64,000 nt of DNA from Candidatus Latescibacterota bacterium (GCA_965222605.1 OZ244960.1:1248001-1312000), one strand, 5' to 3'; counted from the stretch's first letter, positions 3,368 through 36,040 are shown. Notes: generated from the letters alone by a model not told the origin. A program made the numbers and translations.

Positions 3368-4560
3368 CAATACCTTCGCCAAAAAAGTATAGTTAAAGGC
3401 CATCTCTGCGTGTATGTTTAAAGCATTTTTTGGATTCCTCGGCCTGCTATATTTTGGCTGGCGATGAGGTTGTAGTGACCAAATCAGGGAAGCAGACCTA
3501 TGGTTTAGGTCGGTTTTTCTCGTCGCTTTACAAGCGTGCCGTGCCCGGCGTATGCTTTTTTTCATTCGCGCTGATCAATACACAGACGCGGCGTGCCTAT
3601 CCTGTGCTATGCCAACAAGTGCTATCGGATAAAGATAAGGATGAACAGACCACCCCGTCAAAGAAAAAGCAAGCAGAAGCAGAAAAAGCCTCAAAAAGTC
3701 CCAAGAGGAAGCCCGGCAGACCCAAAGGGAGCAAGAATAAAGACAAAAGAAACCCCGACTTGTCACCCTATTTGCGCTTTATCCAGACCCACCTTAAAGG
3801 ACTCATACAACGCATGGGCACAGCCTTACCTTTCACCTATCTCGTCTTGGACGGTGCCTTTGGACACAATGATGCCCTCCAAATGACCCGACAATGCAAG
3901 ATGCATCTCATCTCCAAACTCAAAAGCAACTCGGCCTTGTATTTCCCCTATCAAGGCCCTCAAAAAGAGAGAGGCCAAAGACGCATATACGGCGATAAAA
4001 TAGATTACGACAACATACCGCATACCGATTTGAAAAACACAACCTATCAACAGGCCATTCAAACCCAAATTTATCACCTGATCTTGCGACATCAAAGCTT
4101 TGCCGACCCCATAAATGTCGTGCTCATCGTCAAAACGCATCTCGAAACACACAGAAAAGCCCACGTTGTCTTATTCAGCAGTGATCTTAACCTATCCTAT
4201 GAGACACTCATGGACTACTACGCTTTGCGCTTTCAAATTGAGTTCACCTTCCGCGATGCCAAGCAGTTTTGGGGCTTGGAAGATTTTATGAACATCACAC
4301 AAACTGCCGTCCATAATGGCGCCAATCTCGCTTTCTTCATGGTCAATATCGCACACATTATCCTGCAAAATGTGCGACAAGACACCGGCATAACCGATTG
4401 GAGTGTCCAAGACCTCAAGGCGCGGTTCACTGGCCTAAAATATGTCCGCGAAACATTAAAATTGCTTCCGAAAAAACCACATCCTATTTTTATTCGCCAT
4501 ATTAACACACATATCGCCACATTAGGGGCTATTCGCGCCGCTTAAATGGCGAAGGTATTG
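3368..4560 (+). mobile_element. Insertion sequence (DDE transposase, IS701/IS4-like), 1193 bp
   Basis: Perfect 14-bp terminal IRs CAATACCTTCGCCA (3368-3381) and TGGCGAAGGTATTG (4547-4560) enclosing a transposase; no obvious target duplication. Confidence 0.85.
3430..4545 (+). CDS. DDE transposase, probably N-terminally truncated
   Basis: LAGDEVVV (D1), LVLDGAFG (D2), YALRFQIEFTFRDAKQ (YREK-type); in-frame TAA at 3394 and only a TTG start shortly before D1. Confidence 0.8.
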   Translation: MDSSACYILAGDEVVVTKSGKQTYGLGRFFSSLYKRAVPGVCFFSFALINTQTRRAYPVLCQQVLSDKDKDEQTTPSKKKQAEAEKASKSPKRKPGRPKGSKNKDKRNPDLSPYLRFIQTHLKGLIQRMGTALPFTYLVLDGAFGHNDALQMTRQCKMHLISKLKSNSALYFPYQGPQKERGQRRIYGDKIDYDNIPHTDLKNTTYQQAIQTQIYHLILRHQSFADPINVVLIVKTHLETHRKAHVVLFSSDLNLSYETLMDYYALRFQIEFTFRDAKQFWGLEDFMNITQTAVHNGANLAFFMVNIAHIILQNVRQDTGITDWSVQDLKARFTGLKYVRETLKLLPKKPHPIFIRHINTHIATLGAIRAA

Positions 4561-22900: not shown

Positions 22901-25886
22901 TATCATCTGTCTTATCAGAGGCACTGGCACTGGTCAGAATGTAGCGTATATCATAGATAGAGATAGAGGGCCCTGTATTCGTCGGGGCTGTCCAACTCAC
23001 CTTCAGGCTGTTAAATGTGGCTTGTGCTATCGTCGGGGCTGCGGGCTTACCGGGTGCCTCATTGTCCTGATCCGTCACCGTGATCGTCAGCGTATCTCGC
23101 GCTGTCAACGCTCGACTATCCGCACCACCCGTTGCTTCAACGAACACAATGTATTCATTGTTGTCCCCATCATTAGCCGGGTCTGTAACCGCTACATCGG
23201 TAGGTGCTTCATAGTTGGGTGCTACCTTGAAAGTCAACACGCCCGTCGCTTCAACGATGGAGAACTGTGACCCATCTGCACCGGTAATGATCGCATACCC
23301 TGTGATGCCGTCATCCTCATCTGCATCTGTTGCTACTACTGTGCCAACTGTTGTGGCTGTCGTGATGTTCTCCGATACGGTGAACGATGAGACACTTGTA
23401 ATGACTGGCGCCTGGTTCTGTATCGTTGTCCCTGTCACCGATGAAGACCACGCGCTTGTCCCTTCATCACTCTCTGCGCGAACCTGCACATCGTAGCTCG
23501 TGTTCTGGTCCAGGCTACTAATCGTGTATTCGAGATTGCCACCATTACCACTTGTCCACGCATCCTCAACCTCTGTCCAGTTGGCATCTACATTCTCATC
23601 GGCACTGGTCAGGATATAACGCACATCATAACCACTAATATTTGGTCCCGTATTCGTCGGTGCTGTCCAGTCTATCTTCAAGCTGTTCACCGTTGCTTCT
23701 GCTACTGTCGGGGCAGCAGGCGTGCCAGGGACTTCTGTCACATCACTCACCGTCACTGTAAGCGTCTGCGTTGCCGTCAACGCACGATCACCCACACCAC
23801 TCGTCGCTTCTACAATCACGATGTATTCATTATTACCCGCTACATTGGCTGGGTCTGCAACCGCGACATCAGTGGGCGACTCATAGTTCGGGGCTACATT
23901 GAACGTCAGCACACCGGTTGCTTCCACAATAGAGAACGCTGACCCATCTGCAGCGTCAACTATCCCATACCCTGTGATGTCGTCCTCAGCATCATCGTCC
24001 GTCGCACTGACTGTCACAATGGCTGTGATGATGTTCTCACTCACGGTGATCGGCGCGACAGCAGCGAAGACCGGTCCCTGGTTTTCTACCGTCACCCCTG
24101 CAACAGTATCTGACCATGCACCCGTCCCTTCATCATTCTCTGCTCGCACTTGCACATCATAGCTTGTGTTCTGGTCCAGGCTGCCAATCGTGTATTCGAG
24201 ATTGCCACCATTACCACTCGTCCAGGCATCCGCATCCACCGTCCACTTGGCGTCATCTGTCGCATCTGCACTGGTCAGAATATAGCGCACATCATAGGCA
24301 CTAATATCAGGACCCGTGTTCGTCGGCGCACTCCATTCCACCTTCAGACTGTTAAATGTCGCCTCTGCTATCGTCGGTGTAGCTGGCACACCGGGTGCTT
24401 CGCCAGCCACATTACTCACTGTCACCGTAATCGTCTGCGTTGCTGTCAACGCACGATCACCCACACCACTCGTCGCTTCTACCACCACGATATACGCGTT
24501 ATCCGTATCACTATCCCCTGGACGCTCAAAGTCCGGCGCAGTCTTGAAAGTCAACACACCTGTACCTGACACAATCTCGAACTGTGACTCATCTGCGCCA
24601 CCTGTAATCTCATACCCTGTGATATTGTCGTCAGTATCACTGTCTGCTGCGGTCACTGTGACAACATCTGCTGTGCTGTTCTCACTGACTGAAATCGTTG
24701 ACGTACTCGAGATGACTGGTGCGACATTGGCCTGTGTCACACCTGCAACAGTATCTGACCAACCACTGGTCCCCTCATCATTCTCTGCGCGAACCTGCAC
24801 ATCGTAGCTTGTGTTCTGACTCAGGCTACCAATCGTGTATTCCAAAGAACCACTTGTCCACGCATCTTCAACCTCTGTCCAGTTGGCATCTACATTCTCA
24901 TCCGCACTGGTCAGGATATAACGCATATCATAACCACTAATATCTGGTCCCGTGTTCGTCGGGGCTGTCCAGTTCACCTTCAGGCTGTTCACCGTCGCCT
25001 CTGCTATCGTCGGGGCAGCAGGCGTGCCAGGGACTTCTGTCTCATCTGTCACTGTCACTGTAATCGTCTGCGTTGCCGTCAACTCACGTGTACCTGTTCC
25101 ACTCGTCGCCTCAACCACTACGATATACTCATTATTGCCCGATGCATTCACAGGATCTGCACTAACAACATCCCCTGGACGCTCAAAGTCCGGCGCAGTC
25201 TTGAAAGTCAACGCACCGGTCTGGTCATCAATCTCAAACTGAGACTCATCTGCGCCACCTGTAATCTCATACCCTGTGATATTGTCGTCAGTATCACTGT
25301 CTGCTGCTGTTACAGTGACAACATCTGCTGTGCTGTTCTCACTCACTGAAATCGTTGACGTACTCGAGATGACTGGTGCGACATTCGCACTCGTGGTACC
25401 ACTCACGGTATCTGACCAGTCACCCGTCCCTTCATCGCTCTCTGCTCGCACCTGTATATCATACCCTGTATCAGGCTCTAATGAACCAATCACATATTCA
25501 AGATTACCACCAGTACCACTCATCCAGGCATCTTCCACCTCTGTCCAGTTATTGTCATCTGCCTTATCTGTCTCACTGGCACTGCTGAGGATATAACGCA
25601 CATCATAAGCACTGATCGCAGGTCCCGTGTTCGTCGAGGCTGTCCAACTGATCTTTAAACTATTAAATGTCGCCTCTGCTACTGTCGGTGCTGAAGGCGT
25701 GCCAGGGACTTCTGTCTCATCTGTTACTGTCACTGTAAGCGTCTGCGTTGCCGTCAACCCACGATCACCCGTGCCACTCGTCGCTTCTACAATCACGATG
25801 TATTCATTATCACCCGCTCCACTTGCAGGGGCTGTGCTAACAACATCAGTAGGTGCCTCATAGTTCGGGGCTACCTTGAAAGTCAA
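4920..25886 (-). CDS. Giant surface protein, C-terminal part: FN3+cadherin repeats, two YWTD propellers, GLUG region, DUF4955-like beta-helix domain, Ig-like domain
   Basis: 6988-aa open frame; cadherin motifs (VSEN, ATDAD, PNYE), FN3 motifs (SLKVxW, YDVRY, TSYDVQVRA, GxWS), 12 IYWxD-type repeats, VGGLVG repeats, LPDFSYSGYH domain; starts mid-repeat at a frameshift. Confidence 0.9.
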   Translation of the reverse strand: MTFKVAPNYEAPTDVVSTAPASGAGDNEYIVIVEATSGTGDRGLTATQTLTVTVTDETEVPGTPSAPTVAEATFNSLKISWTASTNTGPAISAYDVRYILSSASETDKADDNNWTEVEDAWMSGTGGNLEYVIGSLEPDTGYDIQVRAESDEGTGDWSDTVSGTTSANVAPVISSTSTISVSENSTADVVTVTAADSDTDDNITGYEITGGADESQFEIDDQTGALTFKTAPDFERPGDVVSADPVNASGNNEYIVVVEATSGTGTRELTATQTITVTVTDETEVPGTPAAPTIAEATVNSLKVNWTAPTNTGPDISGYDMRYILTSADENVDANWTEVEDAWTSGSLEYTIGSLSQNTSYDVQVRAENDEGTSGWSDTVAGVTQANVAPVISSTSTISVSENSTADVVTVTAADSDTDDNITGYEITGGADESQFEIVSGTGVLTFKTAPDFERPGDSDTDNAYIVVVEATSGVGDRALTATQTITVTVSNVAGEAPGVPATPTIAEATFNSLKVEWSAPTNTGPDISAYDVRYILTSADATDDAKWTVDADAWTSGNGGNLEYTIGSLDQNTSYDVQVRAENDEGTGAWSDTVAGVTVENQGPVFAAVAPITVSENIITAIVTVSATDDDAEDDITGYGIVDAADGSAFSIVEATGVLTFNVAPNYESPTDVAVADPANVAGNNEYIVIVEATSGVGDRALTATQTLTVTVSDVTEVPGTPAAPTVAEATVNSLKIDWTAPTNTGPNISGYDVRYILTSADENVDANWTEVEDAWTSGNGGNLEYTISSLDQNTSYDVQVRAESDEGTSAWSSSVTGTTIQNQAPVITSVSSFTVSENITTATTVGTVVATDADEDDGITGYAIITGADGSQFSIVEATGVLTFKVAPNYEAPTDVAVTDPANDGDNNEYIVFVEATGGADSRALTARDTLTITVTDQDNEAPGKPAAPTIAQATFNSLKVSWTAPTNTGPSISIYDIRYILTSASASDKTDDTKWTEVEDAWTSGNGGNLEYTIGSLDQNTSYDVQVRAESDEGTGAWSDTVAGVTVENQGPVFAAVAPITVSENIITAIVTVTATDADEDDNITGYAIVDDADGAQFSIGASTGVLTFKTAPNYEAPEDVQFTDSNNSANDNVAGNNEYIVIVSATGGAGARVLTAMDTIKVTVMDVDTEAPGTPDAPTITQATFNSLKVNWTAPTNTGPAISAYDVRYILTSADETDDANWTVITDAWTSGTGGALEYTISPLAQDTEYDVQILAESDEGTSDWSDTVKGMTSVNVAPVITSTSSFTVSENITTATTVGTVSATDADADDSITGYAIVTGADRSQFSLGEATGVLTFKSSPNYEDPEDVAFTDANNSDNDNAADNNEYIVIVEATGGENARVLTVRDTLTITVTDVTEPPAAPAVPTIAEATFNSLKVEWTAPTNTGPAISAYDIRYILTSADENVDANWTEVEEVWTSGNGGNLEYTISSLDQNTSYDVQVRAENDEGISDWSDTVAGVIQANVAPVISSASTFTVSENSTADVVTVTAADSDTDDNITGYEITGGADGSQFEIDDQTGALTFKTAPDFEHPGDVVSADPVNASGNNEYIVVVEATSGTGTRELTVTQTITVTVTDETEVPGTPSAPTIAEATFNSLTVSWTAPTNTGPEISAYDVRYILSSASETDKADDTKWTEVEDAWTSGTGGALEYTISPLAQNTEYDVQIFAESDEGTSGWSDSVEGMTTENVAPVITLIDAISVAENSTGDIVTISASDADTGDDIESYGIATGADGGQFSIGADSGVLTFSASPNYEAPTDVLVSDPASGAGDNEYIVYVEATGGEDARALTARDTLTVTVTDVTEPPAAPAAPTIAEATFNSLKVNWTAPTNTGPAISSYDIRYIPTSADENVDANWTEVEEVWTSGNGGNLEYTISSLDQNTSYDVQVRAENDEGISDWSDTVAGVIQANVAPVISSASTFTVSENSTADIVTVTASDADTGDDIESYGIATGADGEQFSIGASTGVLTFKAVPNYEDPKDVAVTDPENNADNNEYIVFVEATGGENARALTARDTLTITVTDQDDEVPGQPATPTIAEATFNSLKVEWSAPTNTGPDISAYDVRYIFSSASETDKADDSKWTVDADAWTSGNGGNLEYTIGSLDQNTSYDVQVRAENDEGTGAWSDTVAGVTVENQGPVFAAVAPITVSENIITAIVTVSATDDDAEDDITGYGIVDAADGSAFSIVEATGVLTFNVAPNYESPTDVAVADPANVAGNNEYIVIVEATSGVGDRALTATQTLTVTVSDVTEVPGTPAAPTIAEATVNSLKIEWTAPTNTGPDISGYDVRYILTSVDETDDANWTEVEDAWTSGNGGNLEYTISSLDQNTSYDVQVRAESDEGTSAWSSSVTGTTIQNQAPVITSVSSFTVSENITTATTVGTVVATDADEDDGITGYAIITGADGSQFSIVEATGVLTFKVAPNYEAPTDVVSTAPASGAGDNEYIVIVEATSGVGDRELTATQTLTVTVTDETEVPGTPSAPTIAEATFNSLKVVWNAPTNTGPTISAYDVRYILTSASETDDANWTEVEDAWTSGSLEYTIGSLDQNTSYDVQVRAKNDEGTSDWSATKAGMTTQNQAPVFVVVQPQSVNENSTGAIVTVTATDADEDDNITGYAIVDDADGAQFSIGASTGVLTFKTAPNYEAPEDVQFTDSNNSANDNVAGNNEYIVIVSATGGAGARALTAMDTIKVTVMDVDTEAPGTPDAPTIAEATFNSLKVEWSAPTNTGPDISAYDVRYILTSADETDDAKWTVDADAWTSGDGGTLEYTISSLSQNTSYDVQVRAENDEGISGWSDTVAGVTVENQGPVFAAVAPITVSENIITAIVTVSATDDDAEDDITGYGIVDAADGSAFSIMEATGVLTFNVAPNYESPTDVAVTDPANVAGNNEYIVVVSATGGASDRELTATQTLTVTVTDVTEVPGTPSAPTIAEATFNSLKVVWNAPTNTGPAISAYDVRYILTSADETDDANWTEVEDAWTSGSLEYTIGSLDQNTSYDVQVRAENDEGTGAWSDTVSGTTSANQAPVITSASSFTVSENSTADIVMVTASDADTDDDIESYGIATGADGSAFSIGASTGVLTFKVAPNYEDPKDVAVTDPENDADNNEYIVFVEATGGADSRALTARDTLTITVSDVTEAPGQPATPTIAEATFNSLKNSWTAPTNTGPAISAYDIRYILTSADETDDTKWTEVEDAWTSGSLEYTIGSLNQNTSYDVQVRAESDEGTSAWSSSVTGTTIQNQAPVITSVSSFTVSENITTATTVGTVVATDADEDDGITGYAIITGADGSQFSIVEATGVLTFKASPNYEDPKDVAVTDPENDADNNEYIVFVEATGGAGDRELTTTQIITVTVTDVNEAPDQPATPTIAEATFNSLKVEWSAPTNTGPDISAYDVRYILTNADETDDANWTVVEDAWTSGSLEYTIGSLDQNTSYDVQVRAENDEGISGWSDTVAGVTVENQGPVFAAVAPITVSENIITAIVTVSATDDDAEDDITGYGIVDAADGSAFSIVEATGVLTFNVAPNYESPTDVAVADPASGAGDNEYIVIVEAASGAGDRELTATQTLTVTVSDVETEAPGVPATPTIAEATFNSLKVEWTAPENTGPSITAYDVRYILSSASDVDKANDNNWTEVEDAWTSGNGGNLEYTISSLDQNTSYDVQVRAENDEGISGWSDTVAGVTQANVAPVISSTSTISVSENSTADVVTVTAADSDTDDNITGYEITGGADESQFEIDDQTGALTFKTAPDFERPGDSDTDNAYIVIVEATSGVGDRELTATQTITVTVSNVAGEAPGTPATPTIAEATFNSLKVQWSAPTNTGPSITAYDVRYILSSEDENVDANWTVEDDAWTSGDLTYTIENLSSNTSYDVQVRAENAEGTSNWSATKAGMTTQNQAPVFVVVQPQSVNENSTGAIVTVTATDADGDDNITGYAIVTGADGSQFSLGEATGVLTFKSSPNYEDPEDVAFTDANNSDNDNAADNNEYIVIVEATGGENARALTARDTLTITVTDQDNEAPGKPAAPTIAQATFNSLKVSWSAPTNTGPAISSYDIRYIPTSADENVDANWTEVEDAWTSGNGGNLEYTIGSLDQDTSYDVQVRAENDEGTSGWSDTVAGMTQANVAPVITSASSFTLSENSTADIVTVTASDADTGDDIESYGIATGADGEQFSIGASTGVLTFKAVPNYEDPKDVAVTDPENNADNNEYIVFVEATSGEGDRELTATQTLTITVTDVTEPPAAPAAPTIAEATFNSLKISWSAPTNTGPDISAYDVRYILTSASDTDKTDDSNWTEVTDAWTSGSLEYTIGSLSQNTSYDVQVRAENDEGTSDWSATKAGMTTQNQAPVFVVVQPLSVSENITGVIVTVSATDADTDDTITGYEITGGADGSAFSIVEATGVLTFNVAPNYESPTDVAVADPANVAGNNEYIVIVEATSGAGDRALTATQTLTVTVTDETEVPGTPSAPTVAEATFNSLKISWTAPTNTGPAISAYDVRYILSSASETDKADDAKWTVDADAWTGNNGGNLAYTIGSLSQNTSYDIQVRAKNDEGTSSWSSSVAETTKANVVPVFTSVSAISVNENSTGAIVTVTATDVDNDDSIKGYAITGGVDKDQFEIDDQTGVLSFETALDYERPEDVVSTDPANAEKNNKYIVVVEATSGTGDRALTATQTLTVTVSDVNEAPGVPDTPTVAEVTLNSLKVQWSAPTNTGPDISSYDMRYILSSASTSDKADDTKWTEVADAWTSNNGGNLAYTIGSLSQNTGYDIQVRASNDEGTSGWSTSVAGTTKADVAPVFTSVSAISVNENSTSVVTVTATDADSDDTITGYAITGGVDKDQFEIVSNTGVLSFKTALDYERPEDVVSADPANAANNNEYIVIVTATGGAGDRVLTTTQTLTVTVSDVNEAPGKPSVPTIAAVTLNSLKVSWTVPDNTGPAISAYDVRHIPSNASATDKADDTRWTVVTDAWTSGSLEYTISSLAQNKGYDIQVRAENDEGTGAWSDTVEGITTQNSAPSFTSIARFDILENKINVGVVVADDADSEDSVTGYAIVGGADQDHFSIVSGTGALRFKVAPNYELPTDVESIMPVSGVEDNEYIVVVMATSGAGVRTLTATDTIEVVVVDVRHVPEIPNAPIVTETTPSSVTVTWETAKFEFDSQAQGLLAVALDTSEEKIYWADGLSGIWRADFDGSNVEEVIGDRYLLDIALDTSEEKIYWAETSPNRIQRADFDGSNVETIVTSGSMKGIALDIAGGKIYWTDSNANKIRYADLDGSNVEDVITMGLDNPRGIALDILHGEIYWLDVGTDKIRKVDLDGSNVEDVITMGLDNPWGIALDVAGNKIYWSNGGTRKIGRADLDGSNVEDVITMGLDNPRGIALDVAGNKIYWSDGGTRKIGRADLDIDYDVQYSISGANTFADADYMGTDNTMTIVGLDGNTEYDIQVRVVSSEAEGGWSQSGEGMTRERVSPSFNVTSFDVGENNPFVGIVSASNASSYAITGGVDADKFSFFSDIDLLTFKTAPDYEMASDDNMDNSYIVEVTATNNLGDQSLTTEQAITVTVSDVTAPALSELKVTGSTWNSLMMAMAYELSTPLAEPRDLALDLLKNKIYWIDSGGSRIQRADLDGSNIENIITTGLNSPGDIAVDFVRGQIYWTEAGKVRRADLDGSDIEDIVPTGWPTVVANIALDIIGGKIYWTHSEGLNIVNGVRRADLDGSNSEIILDVGFPRDIALDVSGGKIYWTNNHIDRKVRRADLDGSNIEDIVMSNDAGGSGRINADKIALDLFGDKVYWTDRSNRNVIRRADLDGSNVEDFITSELLSSQDIVLDGGRYRIYWTDDVTNTIHWADIADYEVQYRFRRLGVFSNGNYTGKAAYLTLIDLDAATEYDVQVRATNGEGQGEWSELEGATLFDDYDDDDDGLIEVSNLEQLNAIRYDLDGNGAVDDANNANSYDLAFPLAPSGMGCPSICTGYELTKDLDFNDSDSYASGSVNTDWTIKSSDGWEPIGTASDLFTTTFHGNGHTISHLFIQRDSYEAGLFGKSSGEIKNVGLVGVNVTGRQWVGGLVGHMTGKVFVCYVTGQVGGGGVVGGLVGFNEGRIYTSYANVSVDNAENGGGLVGQNDGTLMACYSTGIVNTSRNAGGLVGWNNDTGTVRICYTTCRVWDNRSGRVGGFFGGASDPRSGTTFSDNYWQERNGYRSDGVGDGTAIEIWRKWLSEMRSPTDANPTIYVTWDDEDVDNDGNTDAPWTFGTSDQLPVLKADFNGDESVTWEEFGNQREKEVLAREWAQNHSVSADDISFTWADFMEAKKNKRQPILPDFSYSGYHYFERPVPNVTHQQFAVTDYGAVPNDNMSDQSAIQAAIDAAEANGSGIIFFPPGEFLVSTNTDKEDDGEGNMINKPIYIGKSNIVLRGSGRESGGTVIRQVNHLPPSIPGTLYTNPYMFTFKPSNWPHSYWVKWNETSTELARITEDAARETFWITVANTSQLRVDQWIVLSMRSNTVTNEFFAPYSKRDSWGDVAVTEKHSIAEIRDNRVRLNEPIHTLRIEADHGWTVRDYSPLLEEVGVEDISFHGSWLEDFEHHKNDRHNSGWSLVLFRGCVNSWARRLSFVNVNRALQVKDSAAISVYQVTTAGNDAHYSMRSVGNYGIWFGLVEDLADHIHGINVMSSTTGDVYWRADQSRDQPIDCHASRPYANLYDRINRGKLDGSGGAEKDMPNHYRHLVIWNFTHDVSSEKYYNFWPSSGSYGYYVKPIIVGFHGDSASFRESTLEVLESNGSAVKPESLFEAQLELRLGNVPAWLDNLKSEWQTLKGTWLLSVPTVLSKNSIDRVLLHVRSPFPGFSSEATVDMSDYFEVKYNKRIDAYSATSSDEDVATVRVRGSNVTIQATSEVPPDLVIQPFIKECQIIVTATSTDGTTATQTIPVRVWWWTR

Positions 25887-27000
25887 CGCACCGGTCTGGT
25901 CTCAAACTGAGACTCATCTGCGCCACCTGTAATCTCATACCCTGTGATATTGTCGTCAGTATCACTGTCTGCTGCTGTTACAGTGACAACATCTGCTGTG
26001 CTGTTCTCACTCACTGAAATCGTTGACGTACTCGAGATGACTGGTGCGACATTGGCCTGTGTCACACCTACAACAGTATCTGACCATCCACTGGTCCCCT
26101 CATCATTCTCTGCGCGAACCTGCACATCGTAGCTTGTGTTCTGACTCAGGCTACCAATCGTGTATTCCAAAGAACCACTTGTCCACGCATCTTCAACCTC
26201 TGTCCAGTTGGCATCTACATTCTCATCCGCACTGGTCAGGATATAACGCACATCATAAGCACTAATATTTGGTCCTGTGTTTGTCGGTGCTGTCCAGTCT
26301 ATCTTCAAGCTGTTCACCGTTGCTTCTGCTATCGTCGGTGTAGCAGGCGTGCCAGGGACTTCTGTCTCATCTGTCACTGTCACTGTAAGCGTCTGCGTTG
26401 CCGTCAACTCACGATCACCCACACCACTCGTCGCTTCTACCACCACGATGTATTCATTGTTATTGGCTGCATTGGCAGGGTCTGTAACCTCAACATCTGC
26501 AGGTGCCTCATAGTTGGGTGCCACCTTGAAAGTCAACACACCCGTTTGATCACCAATCTCGAACTGTGACCCATCTGCATCATTAACAATGCCATAACCC
26601 TCTATGCTGTCATCACTATCACCGTCTGTCGCTGTGACTGTACCAATGTCCCCTGTGCTGTTCTCACTGACTGAGATCGCCGATACATTCGTGAACACAG
26701 GTGCCTGATTCTGCTGCGTCGTCCCCATAACCGATGAAGACCACACACCTGTCCCCTCGTCATTCTTCGCTCGCACCTGTATCTCATAACCCGTGTTCTG
26801 CTCCAGGCCCGTGATCGTGGCACTCAAACCCGTGCCATCGTGAGGCCAAGAAGTGAAGTCACCACTGTTGCCGACCCGATACTGCACATCGTAAGCTGTG
26901 ATCGCAGGTCCCGTATTCGTCGGCGCTGTCCAACTTATGGTCAAGCTATTTAGCGTTGAGGCTGATACTGTCGGTACTGCTGGCTGACCCGGCACCTCGG
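10330..27000 (-). repeat. Tandem array of 25 FN3+cadherin units, about 670 nt each
   Basis: Counted 25 occurrences of the T[F/V/L]NSL FN3 motif at about 670-nt spacing; long near-identical DNA blocks, e.g. 18475-19450 vs 23215-24190. Confidence 0.9.
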
Positions 27001-29704
27001 TCACATCGGTCAAGGTGATCGTCACATCTATGCTTGCACGCCCACCTTGACCATCCGCCACACGCACCACCACTGAATAGCTATCTTTCACCTCATAGTT
27101 ATACGTCACACCGTCCGTCGTCTGAAGCTGCCCACTCGTTGAAACAATGGCAAAACTCGCTGCATCAGCCCCTTCCAGGCTATAGGTCAATGTCCCACCG
27201 TCACTGTCTGTCGCAACTACCGCGTCCCCTATATTCTCCCCCGCCACCGTGTTCTCAGCAAAACTGCGCGCTAGATCGACCTCGCTGAATATCGGAACCT
27301 GATTGGCCGATTTCACCTCTATGGAGAATATGAGTTCGGCACTGTTCCCGGCGCCATCCCTCGCTTGCCATTTATATTCCCTTGCCTCTGTTGCAACCCT
27401 CGGCGTGCCGCTAATCGTACGGGTTCCTACATCTATGATCAGACCATCAGGCAATGCCGGCGTGAGGGTATAGCCAATCGCAACATAGCCACCCGTCGCT
27501 TCGGGCAGTTGGAGATCGGTAATCTGTGTCCCTACTGTGTAAGTCTGATCCGGTAATGTCGCACCATCAAAACTCAGTTTCACATCCGCCTTGTTCACCG
27601 TCACTGCAATAGTCTGCTCGGCAGTCTGATTCGAGCCTGCTACATCTCGCGCAATCACTGTAATCGTCGCCGTGCCCTCAGCCACAGGTGTGATCGTCAC
27701 TACAGAACCCGACACATCCACCTTTGCAATGGCGTCATCACTCGACGCTGCCACGTATGTCAAATCATCGCCATCAGGATCAGAAAACCTGGCCGATACA
27801 TCTATTTTCAAGGCTTCGTCACCCATCTTCAGCGTCTGTGCCGCAAACCTTCCCACCGCCACAGGTGCGCGGTTGACACGCACGCCGCCAACCCCAAAGA
27901 GAGAGAACATATCGGTATAACCGCAGACCTCATCACCAGCCACACGCTGCCGCTCAAGCATTTCCCAGGCACTCTCGTAATGGACAATGACAGGATCAGA
28001 AATATTCTCAGGCACAGTCAGACAAATCTCCACAGATGCTTGCAACGCATCGCCGATATCAACATCCTGGTTATCGACCTGAGCCTTCAGGTCTATATCA
28101 AAAAGGGATGAACTGGCAGGAATGGCAAAACCCGCCTGAGCAGATACATCCGGGGCATCGGAAACCGCTATCTTGCCGACTTCTGCGAAGACGCCCTCGA
28201 TCTCCTCATGCGGGATACTAACAGGAAGAGCGGCGCGAGTGACAATGATTCTGCCCCCTTCACCTGTAAAAGGAGACAGGTCAATAACCGCATATGCTCT
28301 ATCGCCCTCACCCTGAAATTGTGCAAGCTTCGGTTCCTCTTTAGGTGGCTCATAGACCGGCGTACCCGAAACAGGCTCAGACCAATCGCTTGCGCCATCA
28401 CTGTTCCATGTGCGAACACGAACCTGATACAATTGACCATTGATCAAGTAGGGATCGTGATAACGAGGAACTTTTAACTCATGATAATAAACAGAGGTAT
28501 TGGTACGACCATAGATAGTCTTTCGATCCCCCCAGATGCCGTCTTCACCCTTGCGAATCTCGGCATGATACCCCCTTACTGGCGGTCTCCCACGCTCATC
28601 AGGCACCGTAGCGTAGTGGACGGTGAGGGACTCGTTGGCCGGAATAACCAGAAAATTCGACGGCGGTGAAGAGGGCGGTTCTTTCAAATCGTTAATTTTG
28701 ATGATCACCAAAAGGCGCGCTGTCCCCCCCTGACCATCGCTCACCTCAACAATCACGGAGTAGGTCGTCCGATATTCATAGTCATACGTGATGTCTTCCC
28801 GCGTCTGAAGCTGACCCGTGCGTGTGTCAATGGCAAAAAGATCGACATCCGTACCGCTGAGGTGGTAGGTCACAATATCGCCGTCAGCATCGGTCGCAGA
28901 GATAGGACTACCTATCAGTTCACTCCCCGGCGTGTTCTCATCTATAAAGTGTGTCACATAAGTCTCTGACGTGAAGACCGGTGCGTGATTTATCCATTTG
29001 CCATAGCTCTTGATAAAAATCAAGAAATCGTCTAACCCAATCTCACCATTCCCATTCAGGTCGTATTTTGCCTCATACTGCTCTTGACCTTCTTGATAGC
29101 CATACAACCCGATCAACAAAGAAAAGTCTTGAAAATCCACAAACCCACTCCCATCAAAATCCGGGGAAGGTGCTACAGCGACCTGTAGCACGACACGTAT
29201 GTTCAACATCACACTTTCAACTTGCCCACTGCGGCTAAGTTCGGCACGCACCAATAGAATCTCGGTCTGTGAAAAGGCATCTGTCGTGCGAAAGCGAATC
29301 GTGCCAACAAGACCGCTGTTGACCGTTGCAGACCCACTCAAAGAAGCTATGTTGATCTGCACAGAGCTTGGATTTGTACCCTCTGATACCCTCATATCAG
29401 GATTGGGCAATACATCACCTGCATCAAAATCCGTGTAAACAACCTGAGTGACATCGTATTCAAAACGTGCGGAAAGACCGCTCGCATTTTGAATATCTGT
29501 GCCAAAAATCTGAATGGAAACATCTTGATTGGGGGATACATCGAGAGAGTGGATACCCTGATCACCTTCAGAACCATCCAAACTTAGAGAAAGGGAAAAA
29601 CTGCTCGTCTGTGTGGATACAGACCACGGAGACATCAAGAGCATATAGCCCAGTAGGCTGGTAATACCAAGCGCGAAAGAGAGCGATTTAACCTGGAGTG
29701 TCAT
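25883..29704 (-). CDS. Giant surface protein, N-terminal part: signal peptide, cohesin-like, dockerin/EF-hand-like, cadherin, FN3 and Ig-like domains
   Basis: Hydrophobic N-terminus; DFDGSGFVDFQDF...YDLNGNGEIGLDDF; ends in a repeat unit cut by a 7-bp deletion at 25900/25901. Confidence 0.88.
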   Translation of the reverse strand: MTLQVKSLSFALGITSLLGYMLLMSPWSVSTQTSSFSLSLSLDGSEGDQGIHSLDVSPNQDVSIQIFGTDIQNASGLSARFEYDVTQVVYTDFDAGDVLPNPDMRVSEGTNPSSVQINIASLSGSATVNSGLVGTIRFRTTDAFSQTEILLVRAELSRSGQVESVMLNIRVVLQVAVAPSPDFDGSGFVDFQDFSLLIGLYGYQEGQEQYEAKYDLNGNGEIGLDDFLIFIKSYGKWINHAPVFTSETYVTHFIDENTPGSELIGSPISATDADGDIVTYHLSGTDVDLFAIDTRTGQLQTREDITYDYEYRTTYSVIVEVSDGQGGTARLLVIIKINDLKEPPSSPPSNFLVIPANESLTVHYATVPDERGRPPVRGYHAEIRKGEDGIWGDRKTIYGRTNTSVYYHELKVPRYHDPYLINGQLYQVRVRTWNSDGASDWSEPVSGTPVYEPPKEEPKLAQFQGEGDRAYAVIDLSPFTGEGGRIIVTRAALPVSIPHEEIEGVFAEVGKIAVSDAPDVSAQAGFAIPASSSLFDIDLKAQVDNQDVDIGDALQASVEICLTVPENISDPVIVHYESAWEMLERQRVAGDEVCGYTDMFSLFGVGGVRVNRAPVAVGRFAAQTLKMGDEALKIDVSARFSDPDGDDLTYVAASSDDAIAKVDVSGSVVTITPVAEGTATITVIARDVAGSNQTAEQTIAVTVNKADVKLSFDGATLPDQTYTVGTQITDLQLPEATGGYVAIGYTLTPALPDGLIIDVGTRTISGTPRVATEAREYKWQARDGAGNSAELIFSIEVKSANQVPIFSEVDLARSFAENTVAGENIGDAVVATDSDGGTLTYSLEGADAASFAIVSTSGQLQTTDGVTYNYEVKDSYSVVVRVADGQGGRASIDVTITLTDVTEVPGQPAVPTVSASTLNSLTISWTAPTNTGPAITAYDVQYRVGNSGDFTSWPHDGTGLSATITGLEQNTGYEIQVRAKNDEGTGVWSSSVMGTTQQNQAPVFTNVSAISVSENSTGDIGTVTATDGDSDDSIEGYGIVNDADGSQFEIGDQTGVLTFKVAPNYEAPADVEVTDPANAANNNEYIVVVEATSGVGDRELTATQTLTVTVTDETEVPGTPATPTIAEATVNSLKIDWTAPTNTGPNISAYDVRYILTSADENVDANWTEVEDAWTSGSLEYTIGSLSQNTSYDVQVRAENDEGTSGWSDTVVGVTQANVAPVISSTSTISVSENSTADVVTVTAADSDTDDNITGYEITGGADESQFETRPVR

Positions 29705-29820
29705 CTATCGATATCTTCAAAGAAGGGCTACTTGTAATGAGCACGATGTGGTTTACGTTGTGCATTTGGATCGAACGGGATTTGTCTGGGGTTGTTTGGC
29801 AGAACCTGTGAGACTTCGAT

Positions 29821-29860
29821 AAGACAATCGTTTGTAGTCAATTATACAAACGACTGTCTT
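29821..29860. promoter_or_regulatory. Pair of inverted LacI-like operator sites upstream of the giant gene
   Basis: AAGACAATCGTTTGT (29821-29835) and ACAAACGACTGTCTT (29846-29860); each near-palindromic around a central CG. Confidence 0.5.
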
Positions 29861-29943
29861 AGATCAAAATATATATATAGGAACGTCAGGTGTGTCTTTC
29901 TCAATAGTGTGACTCCTGATGAATGAGGCAAATAGTGCGCTAC

Positions 29944-29983
29944 AAATAAGAAAAACCGAGTGCCATCACCTATGACACCCGGT
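29944..29983 (-). terminator. Intrinsic terminator in the giant gene leader
   Basis: Minus strand ACCGGGTGTCAT-AGGTG-ATGGCACTCGGT (12 bp, 2 G-U pairs valid only on this strand) followed by TTTTCTTATTT. Confidence 0.8.
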
Positions 29984-30148
29984 TGATTCATTGTTTATGC
30001 CGGTCAAATGCCACAGGCTGTTAGACTCTCTCTATAGCTCAGATTGAGTTCGGTCCTTTCGGAAACCGAAACCATAGCATTTAACCGGCTGGAAATAGAT
30101 CAAATTATACCTGGTTCTTTCCAGCCGGAGCTATAAATAGAGTCTAAC
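29944..30148 (-). ncRNA. Structured RNA: candidate riboswitch/attenuator or sRNA, family not recognised
   Basis: Starts 6 nt after a -10 box; closing stem plus two internal hairpins (one GAAA-capped), an alternative 18-bp helix, then a terminator. Confidence 0.6.
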
Positions 30149-30154
30149 GATCTT

Positions 30155-30183
30155 ATATTACAAAATTTAAATAACGTTTGCAA
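30155..30183 (-). promoter_or_regulatory. Sigma70-type promoter driving the structured RNA / giant gene leader
   Basis: TTGCAA (30183-30178), 17 nt spacer, TAATAT (30160-30155). Confidence 0.7.
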
Positions 30184-30214
30184 GAGGAAAATTACCCATA
30201 AGACAAATTGCCCT

Positions 30215-30245
30215 AAAAAAATACCCGGCGAGAACCGGGTATTTT
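30215..30245 (-). terminator. Intrinsic terminator after the YesU-like gene
   Basis: AAAATACCCGG-loop-CCGGGTATTTTTTT on the minus strand. Confidence 0.8.
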
Positions 30246-30271
30246 AGCACGTAAAAATAGTCTGTAAGTCT

Positions 30272-31123
30272 TTATACCTGAGCACTGACCTCACACACCT
30301 TCAAATTCGCATATTCGCCAATCAAAGGTGCCATCTGTCGAAAACCAATCTTGCCACCGCCCAGCAAAGGTCCATACGTCTGACCATCATCAACCCAGTG
30401 GAAAATCTTCAAATCGCGAATATAAAAAACAACCTCTGATCCGCATTTGATCAGCGTAATCGGGTATGGCGGTCTGGCATCGTCAACTGAAGGTAGAGGA
30501 TCGGCACCTTGACAGACCATGTGAAAACCATAACTCTTGCGCAAATTGCAAACCTGAAAAGCGCGTTCCTTGAGAGCCTTTCGCCGAAAATAAGACACGT
30601 GCAACGCATTGATATCGCTGCTGTGATACTGCTTGTATTCGCCAGCCCGCGGCGCCAATGACGAATCAAACACATCTTCACCCCCTCGCCCCAAAGCAGA
30701 AAAAAACAAAATGCACAACCCCGGCTCGCGCACCGGCCAAAAATCCCACGTCACGGCAATATCCGCTGGAAAATCTTCAGGACACCAGAAAACAAAATTT
30801 GCCGCCTGCCCTTCCCCGGGATCGCGGCGGTTCTCCATTCGCATGCGACCATTTGGAAAAGTGATTGCAGCATCTCCCTCCATCCGAAACCCTTCAATAT
30901 CTGACGCTGAAGACAGGGGATTGTCGTAAAGCAATTCGCCAAATTCAAAATTATCCATAACACCACTCCTGATGCGTTGACGTATTGGGTTCTTCGCCGC
31001 ATGAACAGCCTGCCTCAAAAACAGCGGCGCACTGCCAAAAGATACAGAAAACAATACCATATTGCTGCATTTTATAAACGCCCTGCGCGTCCATTCCATC
31101 ATTTTATCTCTCGTGTTATTCAA
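30272..31123 (-). CDS. YesU/DUF1961 family protein with an in-frame Tat-like leader; alternative start at 30958
   Basis: LYDNPLS...FRMEG, NFVFWCPEDFP, ALHVSYFRR, CNLRKS, GGKIGFRQMAP; TRRAFIK leader; AGGAG RBS before ATG 30958. Confidence 0.8.
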   Translation of the reverse strand: MNNTRDKMMEWTRRAFIKCSNMVLFSVSFGSAPLFLRQAVHAAKNPIRQRIRSGVMDNFEFGELLYDNPLSSASDIEGFRMEGDAAITFPNGRMRMENRRDPGEGQAANFVFWCPEDFPADIAVTWDFWPVREPGLCILFFSALGRGGEDVFDSSLAPRAGEYKQYHSSDINALHVSYFRRKALKERAFQVCNLRKSYGFHMVCQGADPLPSVDDARPPYPITLIKCGSEVVFYIRDLKIFHWVDDGQTYGPLLGGGKIGFRQMAPLIGEYANLKVCEVSAQV

Positions 31124-32833: not shown

Positions 32834-35800
32834 TTAGGGACGTTCAATACCCATTTTTTTCATTTTGCTATACAGAGTAGAAGGCGGTAATCCCAGCAGA
32901 GTCGCCGCACCCTTTGCTCCCTTTACCCGCCAGTTCGTGTCTTTGAGCACTTCGATGATGTAGCGGCGTTCAAATTCCTCCAAAGGCACGACTCTGTGGT
33001 CTTGATCTAAGATGCTCCTCTCAAGATCGAGAGTTGTATCTTCGATTTGAGAACCGTACAGTCCCAGATCCCGCACTTCAATTTGAGAACCACGACACAC
33101 AATTACGGCTCGCTGTATGACATGCTCCAGTTCTCTCACATTTCCCGGCCAATGGTAGGCTTGTAACGCCTCTATAACCCCTGACGTCAAGGAGCCGATT
33201 TGCTTACCCAAATGCGCTGCCATGCGATTCTTGAAAAATTCGGCCAGGCGCCGTATATCCTTCTTGCGCTCGCGCAAGGCTGGCAGATGAATTGGAAAAA
33301 CCTGGAAGCGATAATAGAGATCCTCGCGGAAAGCTCCCGCGCTGACTATCTCTTTCAGGTCACGATTCGTCGCGGCCACAATGCGCGCCTGTACCTTCAG
33401 CGTCTCGCTGCCCCCAACGCGCTCAAACGTGCGCTCTTCCAGCAAGCGCAACATCCTCGCCTGTGTTTTCGGAGCCATATCCCCGATCTCATCCAAAAAG
33501 AGCGTGCCATCTTTCGCCAGTTCCACCTTGCCCAGCCTGCGGAAAACTGCGCTGGTAAACGCCCCTCTCTCGTGACCAAAAAGTTCACTATCGATCAGCG
33601 ATTCGGGTAAAGCACCGCAGTTGACCTGTATAAAAGGACCATCGCAATGGGCACTCAGTGCGTGTAACACCCGCGCAGCCACCCCTTTGCCCACACCCGT
33701 CTCGCCCAGAATCAGCACCGTCAGATCAGTGGGAGCCACCTCCATGAGTTTGATTTGAAACTGATGCATAGCTGTGCTCTGACCGATAAACTCCTTGCCA
33801 ACGCCATCAGCGCTATTGAGTACGGCGGTCAGTGCGCTGATGTGCGGATCCACCTCTACCGAAAGCCGCGCCTGTGCCATCTCCGAGTAATTGAGATCGC
33901 GATCTATAGCCCTGACCTGGAATGTGTAGTCTCCTGGTAGCAAATCCCGGTAACAGACTCGCATCTCTCGGGTCGCTGGTTGCCAGTCGGAATCATAGCC
34001 CTTCAAGCGATAGACATAGAGCATGTCGCGGGGATGGGTGGAAAAACTCATACCTTTGTACTCGAAAATTACCTGCTGATCCGTCGTAGATACGATGACT
34101 TCCTCTAAATTCTCATAGACCTGATCGGCCATGACCTGGAGCAGCCGAACCATGGGCGGAATGTGCCGCAAGCGGTAGCGTATTATGGCCCCTCCCGCAG
34201 TGCCAAACCAGAAGTCCCCTTTGCGATCTTCGAGTATTTGGAGAATCGATCCTATATGCGGTGACTTGATGGTCTGGAAAAACCGACCATCGTAGTGAGC
34301 CACGCCCCCGTCTGCGCCGAGCCAGAGGTGTCCACGCGAATCCTCGAACAAGCAATGGATGCGGTTGCACGGCAAGCCATCTTTGGTGGTAAAGTTGCGA
34401 AAGACAACACCATCAAAACAACTGAGACCTCTTTGAGTAGCGATCCACAGGTTTCCATGGCGGTCTTCCAGCAGGTCGGTGATCCGGTTGTCTAACAACC
34501 CATCTGCGACAGTATAAAAAGAAATGCCATCTTCTGGATGCCACCGCCCAATGCCCTTGCCACTGCCGAAGGGATTGTAGGTACCTACACTAAACCAGAA
34601 CTCGCGGTTGCGCCTGACGATCAAGGCACTAATGTAATTGCACCAATCTCCTTTTTTTTTGAAAACAGTATGGCACTGCCCGCCCCGGTAGTAAACTATC
34701 TGCAATGGGCTGGCAAAGCGACCTCCTCTTTTTTTAGTCGTGCCATTTTCCCACTTTCCGAAAAGAAGTTGCCCTGCCTGGTCCTCGGCGATTGCGCTGA
34801 CCCCCACCTCACCAAAACTTGCGGTAGTGTCCATTTTTTCAAAGCCCTGTCCATCGTAGCGGAACAGGCCGTTACCGCCTCCAAACCACACATGACCGTC
34901 TCGGTCTTCGTAAATAGCAAAACAACTGTTGAGATCGAGACCCTGTTCTGCGCCAACAAGTTCAAAGTACTCGCCATCGAAGCGCACGAGGCTTTTGGTT
35001 GCGGGCCCCAGAAAAGGATCGGAAAACCCGATCCATATATCTCCGCGTCGATCTTGCCGCATCTGCGATATTTTGCTATCGTCTTCGGGAAAATCTGCGC
35101 TGAAATCGAAAATGCTGATACTATGCGCATCGTAGAGCACCACACCGCCGCCCCATGTGGCAAACCAAAACTGATGCTCGCGATCCTGAAATACGGCGTT
35201 GACAACGGGATGAGGCAGACCATCGGCAGTGGTAAACTTGCAAAAACTGTCACCCTCCTGGTAGAGCACTCCTGCTGAGGTACAGAACCACATCCGACCT
35301 GTACCGTCACTCTGAATTTTGCGTAACTCACCACCCAAATTTACCTCAACAGACTGAAAGGTGCCATCGACATAGCACCAGAGTCCATCTCTGCGTTGAG
35401 ACCGACCGATCCATACCTTGCCGGTATGATCTTTGCCCACAGTATAGCTACTCTGGTCCGGTGGAAAACCCTCATCCTCTTCGTAGCGGTGGAAGGACTC
35501 GCCATCAAAGCGGATGAGGTAGTCAAAGCCAAACCACATGTGACCTTCCATATCCTGGGTAATACCCCAACACTGGTTGGTCCACTGAGGAGAAGGAGGC
35601 TGCTCGTAGTGCTGCAGATAGAGCGGAATCAAATCGTGGAAAGCTGTGCCATCGTAATACCCCAGAGTACTGATACCACCAAACCATATACGGCCCTTAT
35701 TATCTTCGTATATAAATAGCACGGATCGGCCTGCAATGCCGTCGTCCTCCAAATGGTGGAAAACCGCCCCATCGTACCAGCAGACGCCATTCATTGTACC

Positions 35801-36040
35801 GAACCATAGCCGATCCTGGCTATCCAGGTGGATGGCAAAAACTCGGTCACTACACAAACCGTCCTGTTCGGTAAACGTCTCGAACTTGTCCCCATCAAAA
35901 TGGCTGACACCACTATCCCAGGTAGCAATCCAGAGACAACCCTTGTTGTCTTCGGCAATATGTTCGGTGCGCACTCCAGCCAGGCCATTGGCAAGGGAAT
36001 AAGTCCGCCAGGTGCCCTTTCTATCGAGTGACTTGATCAT
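32834..36040 (-). CDS. Sigma54-interacting regulator with N-terminal Reg_prop beta-propeller repeats and Y_Y_Y domain
   Basis: Repeated ED..G.LW(F/I)GT units, [12 protein letters not shown]...GDYTFQVRA, Walker [14 protein letters not shown], Walker [16 protein letters not shown], Fis-type HTH. Confidence 0.9.

Follow-up and report, generated by a model that had tools for sequence, protein, structure and literature searches.

The RNA element considered here can be set beside several described systems, each of which it resembles in part. The c4 RNA of phage P1 is released from a longer transcript by RNase P cleavage, with a1 and b1 sites lying upstream; some riboswitch leaders persist as terminated small RNAs, as in the case of SreA of Listeria, which derives from a SAM riboswitch; hok-type mRNAs are subject to fold-back inhibition; and the c-di-GMP-I (GEMM-I) riboswitch is the RNA usually found before giant adhesin genes. 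The Rfam family c4-2 (RF02944) belongs to clan CL00128, together with the c4 antisense RNA of phages P1 and P7. According to a passage of PMC5737381, c4-2 is probably a distant homologue of an RNA described earlier; a c4-a1b1 motif is among those listed in a section of PMC2864571, and a passage of PMC12197685 states that c4 RNA pairs around the ribosome-binding site of its target, so that translation is blocked. The wild-type sequence of the 11-nucleotide (nt) receptor for the GAAA tetraloop is given in an excerpt of bioRxiv 10.1101/2024.03.11.584472 as CCUAAG_UAUGG. Here we analyse positions 29944-30149, minus strand, of a 64,000-nt stretch of Candidatus Latescibacterota bacterium (GCA_965222605.1, OZ244960.1:1248001-1312000), referred to below as the window. 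Judged by its sequence, this locus is a gene complete in itself, with its own conserved promoter and intrinsic terminator, for a structured non-coding RNA of about 205 nt, and it represents a previously undescribed, expressed-looking RNA family with strong two-state covariation and a narrow distribution. To our knowledge, RNA regulation in Latescibacterota, a candidate phylum without a cultured sponge symbiont, is almost uncharted; we found no literature on small RNAs of this phylum, which does not prove that none exists.

From its 5' to its 3' end the predicted transcript consists of segment A, segments B and B' separated by a loop, segment C, hairpin D with its GAAA tetraloop, a short spacer, A', C', a linker and the intrinsic terminator T1 (Table 1), and these segments can be arranged in two folds. 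In fold 1, A pairs with A' over about 20 base pairs (bp) and closes a three-way junction holding B-B' and D, and the 21-nt C' is left single-stranded. In fold 2, a C-C' helix of 19-20 bp encloses D and a second hairpin (hairpin 2), and A is released. Because the order of the segments is A, C, A', C', with A' and C' 0-3 nt apart, the two helices cross and, at about 20 bp each, cannot coexist. The minimum free energy (MFE) structure of the minus strand is the three-way junction together with the terminator, at -82.2 kcal/mol compared with -50.7 +/- 4.1 kcal/mol in 200 shuffles (z = -7.62; none of the 200 equals it), and includes the pairing of the 21-nt closing arms 30148-30128 and 30040-30020, which are 90% complementary. 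The plus strand is less stable (-71.0 kcal/mol, z = -6.23). Fold 1 is the single-sequence MFE structure in 17 of 21 distinct copies of the family and, with the transcript starting near +1, is the lower of the two in energy in 20 of the 21 (mean -59.4 versus -52.8 kcal/mol). Fold 2 is the RNAalifold consensus of 19 copies, in which 30089-30070 pair with 30019-29999, and it is also the fold computed when the first 26 nt are blocked.

As far as aligned sequences can tell, both competing folds are preserved by compensatory change. Segments A and A' vary freely, as do the loops and the linker, with about ten unrelated sequence types of arm among the copies, and pairing is nevertheless kept: across 24 distinct sequences all 20 A-A' pairs are changed on both sides, 92.7% of cells are paired and none of 500 shuffles reaches the score. 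That alignment is model-fitted and so leans towards the model; on an unfitted MAFFT alignment of 10 copies, eight of the 20 pairs are changed on both sides. An alignment-free comparison gives a mean of -29.0 kcal/mol for cognate A/A' duplexes and -12.6 kcal/mol (standard deviation 3.7) for non-cognate ones, the cognate duplex being the best in 20 of 21 copies (the exception is locus L024). Helix B-B' is 92.9% paired across copies and D 96-98%. Segments C, D and C' are near-invariant. The 20 C-C' pairs are 98.9% paired in an unfitted 19-copy alignment, where 11 vary, eight being invariant, nine changed on one side through G-U and two changed on both sides; with 25 sequences, five pairs are changed on both sides. 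In either case none of 500 shuffles reaches the observed values. The two copies of a second genus (genome G021) extend this picture. One has an AU-to-GC change within C-C', from UUAAAUGC/GCAUUUGA to UCGAGUGC/GUGUUCGA, with the helix retained; the other has lost a matched 4 nt from each arm of that helix; and both have an A-A' pairing of their own, unrelated in sequence. Their hairpin 2 has a wholly different stem (CAUAC/GUAUG versus CAAUCU/AGAGUG), and a CG-to-UA change is seen in hairpin 2 among relatives. In paired columns, cells with G-U outnumber those with A-C by 85 to 16 in the fold 1 alignment and by 158 to 12 in the fold 2 alignment, and the selected molecule is therefore the minus-strand RNA.

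Much of this structure had been foreseen in a reading of the window made from the DNA sequence alone (the sequence-only reading), which proposed a minus-strand promoter, a closing stem, an 11-bp stem and a GAAA hairpin joined in a three-way junction, a second helix competing with these, G-U pairs in that helix as a mark of the RNA strand, and a terminator 240 nt before the ATG of a giant gene. All are present where they were placed, the ATG being at 29704 and the 11-bp stem having perfect arms, and the covariation among homologues that was named as a check is found in both long helices.

Table 1. Predicted parts of the RNA gene, in window coordinates
Feature	Positions	Strand	Remarks
Whole predicted RNA, ~205 nt	29944..30149	-	From +1 (30148/30149) to the terminator T-tract
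Promoter	30155..30183	-	-35 TTGCAA 30183-30178, 17-nt spacer, -10 TAATAT 30160-30155
A, 5' arm of closing helix (fold 1)	30128..30148	-	Sequence varies freely among copies
B, 5' arm of 11-bp stem	30118..30128	-	Perfect 11-nt inverted repeat with B'
B', 3' arm of 11-bp stem	30085..30095	-	Last 5 nt (GCCGG) double as part of C
C, 5' arm of alternative 19-20-bp helix (fold 2)	30070..30089	-	Near-invariant; contains UAUGG
D, hairpin with GAAA tetraloop (30060-30057)	30050..30069	-	In both folds
Hairpin 2 of fold 2, CTCAATCT / AGAGAGAG	30026..30048	-	Loop and 3' arm belong to A'
A', 3' arm of closing helix (fold 1)	30020..30040	-	
C', 3' arm of alternative helix	29999..30019	-	Near-invariant; unpaired in fold 1
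A/U-rich linker, C' to terminator	29985..29998	-	Sequence and length variable in the family alignment
T1, intrinsic terminator	29944..29984	-	13-pair stem 29984-29954, then T-rich tail TTTCTTATTT

The ends of the gene are conserved along with its body. The promoter matches the consensus at 8 of 12 positions and is absent from the consensus scan because the scanner's threshold is 9 of 12. In a pattern search, 19 of 21 full-length copies had a promoter of the form TTGnnn-N16-18-TAnnnT at a constant spacing from the RNA, which in 12 of those 19 is exactly TTGCAA-N17; by eye, the two remaining copies have TTGCGT-N17-TACTAT and TTTACG..TATAAT. A T-rich tract lies immediately 5' of the -35 box, and a T-tract occupies the same place in the family. 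T1 with its T-rich tail was found by pattern in at least 19 of 22 copies. Pairing in its stem stands at 93.5%, and five of the pairs show changes on both sides. A similar terminator, T2, follows in tandem in at least six copies by pattern and in more by eye. The predicted RNA is 198-211 nt long in 21 relatives. On the minus strand the upstream neighbour is a DUF1961 gene, whose own terminator precedes the RNA promoter. Thus, as in a free-standing small-RNA gene, there is an own promoter and an intrinsic terminator, both of them conserved.

One public sponge metatranscriptome run, available as contigs, holds a contig of 215 nt of which positions 2-214 match 29937-30149 with three differences, at a depth of 2.4. 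It covers everything between the predicted +1 and a point a few bases beyond the T-tract, the 5' leader included, and we take it as a hint of expression. No other contig of that run lies on 29000-31000, an absence of cover that proves nothing about the flanking genes.

The sequence-only reading had offered two interpretations of these features, a new riboswitch or attenuator gating a 25-kb gene, or a small RNA of about 200 nt. The second fits the conserved promoter, the terminator tail and the contig; the first finds no support. In an attenuator, one of the alternative pairings would include the terminator and the other exclude it. Here, the T1 hairpin is present both in the MFE structure with fold 1 and in the consensus with fold 2. 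No conserved antiterminator pairing was found. The one that had been suggested, between CCGGTT in C and AACCGG in the 5' arm of T1, is complementary in the window, which is trivially true, but it does not covary: the complementarity is lost in L047 and L085, where C has changed and C' has followed. Since T1 is kept in both folds and no antiterminator pairing is conserved, the best reading is that of a stand-alone two-state small RNA, and the anatomy of the element does not support an attenuator gating the giant gene.

A cis-acting leader in the wider sense (an attenuator, a riboswitch or a processive-antitermination RNA), in which a stop at T1 gives the short RNA and a shift of fold lets polymerase reach the downstream gene, deserves separate consideration. 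Two mutually exclusive, conserved pairings are what one expects of riboswitches and attenuators, and the RNA contig does extend to 29937, a few bases beyond the T-tract. In all 20 judgeable loci the longest open reading frame (ORF) in the 1.5 kb downstream lies on the strand of the RNA, with mixed genes upstream; such co-orientation is unusual for free-standing small-RNA genes and hints at a cis link, the copies being related and so not independent. Both copies in the window's own genome also precede paralogous genes (48% identity over 262 amino acids). These points have to be set against the formation of T1 in either fold and the failure of the sole proposed antiterminator, and also against the layout of the relatives' loci, where a convergent element resembling an RNA gene lies between T1/T2 and the next gene in 13 of 21 cases, and where the downstream genes are of many kinds, without a common function or pathway. 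In addition, the conserved nucleotides lie in helices and not in junctions, and Rfam models at gathering score give no match in the 64-kb window, with no riboswitch among nine weaker matches, in agreement with the sequence-only reading, which had recognised no known riboswitch class. We therefore regard a cis-acting leader as unlikely. Leaders of the SreA type do offer a partial parallel, in having a promoter, a structured RNA, an intrinsic terminator and a co-oriented gene, in having two exclusive folds, and in a short product, of which the contig gives a hint here. They differ from the present RNA in that no known aptamer is present here, the competing strand lies 5' of the core, the terminator stands outside the switch and there is no common downstream pathway. 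The c-di-GMP-I riboswitch likewise shares with it a place before a giant gene for a cadherin/FN3 surface protein, a GAAA tetraloop and half of the 11-nt receptor, but its helix layout is unlike that found here and its Rfam model gave no match at any threshold tried. For annotation, this means that a known second-messenger riboswitch probably does not control the giant gene. Apart from c4-2, the weak Rfam matches (an enteroviral element, AbsR28 and others) fall on hairpins or terminators and were dismissed.

The best of the weak Rfam matches on the core is c4-2, at 25.0 bits (E 0.011) for the window's own copy and 27.8-33.3 bits in 4 of 12 relatives' loci, all of them below the gathering score of 41 bits. 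It is the sole c4-2 match in the 6.3-Mb genome at E <= 10, and one of 14 control genomes also has a sub-threshold match. The likeness lies in fold 2, where the c4-2 architecture recurs: a long closing helix with UAUGG at its inner end encloses two hairpins, of which the first bears a GAAA cap and the second is variable; as with c4-2, the RNA lies upstream of and co-oriented with a gene, and its upstream segments are complementary to its body. There are also clear differences. The strand opposite UAUGG is CCUGUGG or CCUAUGG in 21 of 21 copies, which can pair with UAUGG through G-U pairs, whereas the c4-2 consensus has CCUAA; a 55-nt 5' domain here refolds the whole molecule; no loop-complementary target was found in the 1.2-1.8 kb searched downstream; and there is no context of phage or plasmid immunity. 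The present RNA is chromosomal and found in Latescibacterota, and the passage of PMC2864571 concerned places c4 in Proteobacteria and phages.

These observations bear on a second alternative, that the RNA is a c4-type antisense RNA. Fold 1 would then be the precursor, in which A and B hold the body as a1 and b1 do in phage P1, and removal of the 5' leader would give a mature fold 2 of about 125 nt whose hairpin 2 loop acts on an mRNA. The shared architecture and the c4-2 scores, the switch to fold 2 on blocking of the 26 nt at the 5' end, and the co-oriented downstream gene would all be accounted for. That every score falls short of the gathering score, that one control genome also has a sub-threshold match, that the copy-specific A' has no target in the 1.8 kb downstream, that viral contigs give no match and the scanned neighbours are not phage genes, and that the RNA contig retains the 5' leader all speak against it, and on balance we are doubtful of such an identity.

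We favour instead a stand-alone two-state small RNA that acts in trans, with its 5' arm controlling the exposure of C and C', a reading that in our judgement stands about an even chance of being correct. The RNA would first adopt fold 1, since A' is transcribed ahead of C' and is available to A, and C' would then be exposed beside the linker and T1. If the 5' arm A were trimmed or captured, the molecule would pass into the compact, c4-2-like fold 2, in which C and C' are hidden. The output of such a switch would be the availability of the invariant C and C' to a partner in trans, either a target RNA or a protein, and the RNA would not set termination ahead of the giant gene. Shortened derivatives of the RNA retain C', the linker and T1, and we count them as pointing to C' as the working part. 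Hok-type mRNAs offer an analogy for this behaviour, as long-range pairing of the 5' end locks the molecule there too and trimming leads to an alternative fold, both folds being supported by coupled covariation; the difference is that no conserved reading frame is present in this RNA.

Several results weigh against a trans-acting small RNA of this kind. The predicted stability of fold 2 is lower than that of fold 1 by about 6.6 kcal/mol. The evidence from RNA is a single shallow contig; contigs can fix neither ends nor strand, and an RNA library can hold DNA. The co-orientation with the downstream gene described above is of the same tendency. No copy-specific partner for A' or A was found in the 1.2-1.8 kb searched downstream, where the ranks of the cognate sequence spread from 1 to 21. 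Pairing of C' at the start of the next gene is not enriched, being below background in most loci and in the best tenth in 1 of 20, and no extended complementary site was found in the own genome, which gives chance matches of 13-16 nt only. A search for Hfq (PF17209) in that genome, which is 98.7% complete, found none, and the same search was positive in 5 of 14 control genomes; the usual Hfq route is therefore unlikely.

Other identities were also considered. A small protein was rejected, as the single conserved ATG opens 13-17 codons, the variable position is the second codon base and there is no ribosome-binding site. A search for transfer RNA (tRNA) or tmRNA found neither. A phage origin was rejected on the lack of matches in viral contigs and on the scanned neighbours, which are genes for surface, ankyrin, leucine-rich repeat (LRR) and similar proteins. 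A miniature inverted-repeat transposable element (MITE) was rejected on the ten or so types of arm, the identity of 72-86% between copies (by BLAST) and the single full copy in the own genome.

The family comprises about 24 full-length copies, at 0 to 4 per genome, in one family of metagenome-assembled genomes (MAGs) of Candidatus Latescibacterota, whose members are uncultured and associated with sponges. BLAST with 261 nt gave matches in 15 of 41 related genomes, the own one included, with 14 of 24 genomes of the same family and none of 16 of the sister family. A covariance model of the RNA core, R1, gave 20 matches of at least 90 bits in 11 of 21 genomes of genus g1, again including the window's own, and the two divergent copies in one genome of the second genus scored 71 and 65 bits; there was no R1 match in 122 sampled genomes from 13 other families of the phylum. 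A degenerate pattern of 44 positions, run over 185,579 species with one genome each, found 22 loci. Twenty of these belong to records titled as MAGs of Candidatus Latescibacterota or uncultured Latescibacteria; the other two are a 1,064-nt contig under the label Candidatus Poribacteria and a locus labelled "uncultured bacterium". Metagenome contigs of JGI gave one match, a full copy. Hairpins of the T1/T2 type are found as terminators at other places in these genomes and give weak R1 matches on both strands; the arm AACCG(G/C)(G/A)TG(T/C)CAT is common to T1 and T2 (L037-L058, downstream of T1).

Such a patchy distribution within a genus, together with truncated and rearranged copies and one copy beside an IS256-type transposase, might suggest that the unit has no RNA function of its own and is a repeated promoter-terminator cassette, a decaying MITE-like repeat or a DNA palindrome bound by protein. 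Compensatory change in four helices, with G-U far in excess of A-C, argues for selection on the minus-strand RNA. Copies within one genome are 75-85% identical and not near-identical, the unit is not bounded by its inverted repeat, whose sequence differs from copy to copy, and an RNA contig matches the unit. We consider the lack of an RNA function highly improbable.

A bolder form of the trans-acting reading would see in this RNA a switch with a riboswitch-like sensing core, specific to sponge-symbiotic Latescibacterota, in which a signal from the host or the symbiosis, or processing, flips the folds, exposing or hiding C and C', and thereby tunes neighbouring families of surface and eukaryote-like proteins (cadherin/dockerin, ankyrin, LRR). 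We regard this as a quite improbable proposal. If it were true, this would also be the first time that a relative of the phage c4 RNAs is met on a chromosome outside Proteobacteria. If the c4-2 likeness reflects descent, a clan of phage immunity RNAs would be extended to a new phylum and a new setting; a genuine switch between the two states would make the family a compact and well-defined model of a small RNA that gates its own active segment. The RNA adjoins gene classes thought to mediate host contact.

The convergent element seen in the relatives' loci is about 170 nt long and lies 100-300 nt downstream of the RNA, between T1/T2 and the next gene. An example is L058:1588-1794 (-); L037-L057 contain another 16 copies, and in some loci the element occurs again ahead of the next gene. 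On the strand opposite to the RNA, a promoter (CTTGAT-N17-TACATT) is accompanied by two hairpins and a canonical terminator, and on that strand the variation of the element is more consistent with G-U pairing; from these features it is probably another unannotated, convergent small-RNA gene. The hairpin loop of this element (CCACAGGCUG) complements C' over the 9-10 nt at the start of that segment. The element has no match in Rfam. Nor has it any in the window's own genome, and it therefore cannot be needed by the copy of the RNA found there.

Among 18 downstream products scanned, eight lack any Pfam family, three carry ankyrin repeats and one has only a sub-threshold dockerin match; the others, one each, are an LRR and dockerin protein, the cadherin/cohesin/dockerin protein of the window itself, an outer-membrane barrel, a PEGA lipoprotein, a protein with an FGE-sulfatase domain and an IS256-type transposase. 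Most of the relatives' copies do not precede adhesin genes. The gene that follows the shortened copy in the own genome is the paralogue mentioned above, its identity being to the N-terminus of the giant gene product, and parts of that N-terminal module follow 5 of 21 full copies elsewhere.

The shortened copy itself (C1:6300663-6300773; L002/L087) keeps a promoter, a B-like hairpin, C', the linker and T1 and is without C and D. It follows an ABC-transporter gene and an ORF of 193 amino acids, and the same site holds a full copy in genome G014 and T1 alone in genome G009. In another group of derivatives (L019/L046, L028/L086 and L020/L075), B'-C-D runs straight into a ribosome-binding site and an ORF of about 338 amino acids with a weak NucS_C match, the break lying inside the hairpin 2/A' segment. 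These fusions look like the capture of a strong promoter and leader by another gene. An insertion of 150 nt is found at the same point in L029/L032. The L045 copy has an exact duplicate in its genome, over the RNA and 110 nt of upstream flank, and a gene for an IS256/Mutator-type transposase (L045:544-1782, -) follows the L045 copy directly.

The "25-kb gene" downstream of the RNA in the window (4920-29704, minus strand) consists of two ORFs, of 1273 amino acids (25883-29704) and 6988 amino acids (4920-25886), with an overlap of 4 bases; they could represent a coupled pair of genes or else a single gene containing a frame change. The 1273-amino-acid ORF has cohesin-, dockerin-, cadherin-, Big_9- and FN3-like parts. 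Between T1 and its ATG, at 29820-29861, lies a 17-nt inverted repeat with 94% complementarity and 8 nt between the arms, which overlaps a TATAAT (29846-29841) and on this basis looks like either an operator over the giant gene's own promoter or an RNA hairpin. Farther along the window, 32834-36040 (minus strand) encodes a protein of 1068 amino acids with Reg_prop/Y_Y_Y sensor repeats, a sigma-54 activator AAA+ domain and a Fis-type helix-turn-helix, and a DDE transposase gene is located at 3430-4545 (plus strand), far from the RNA element.

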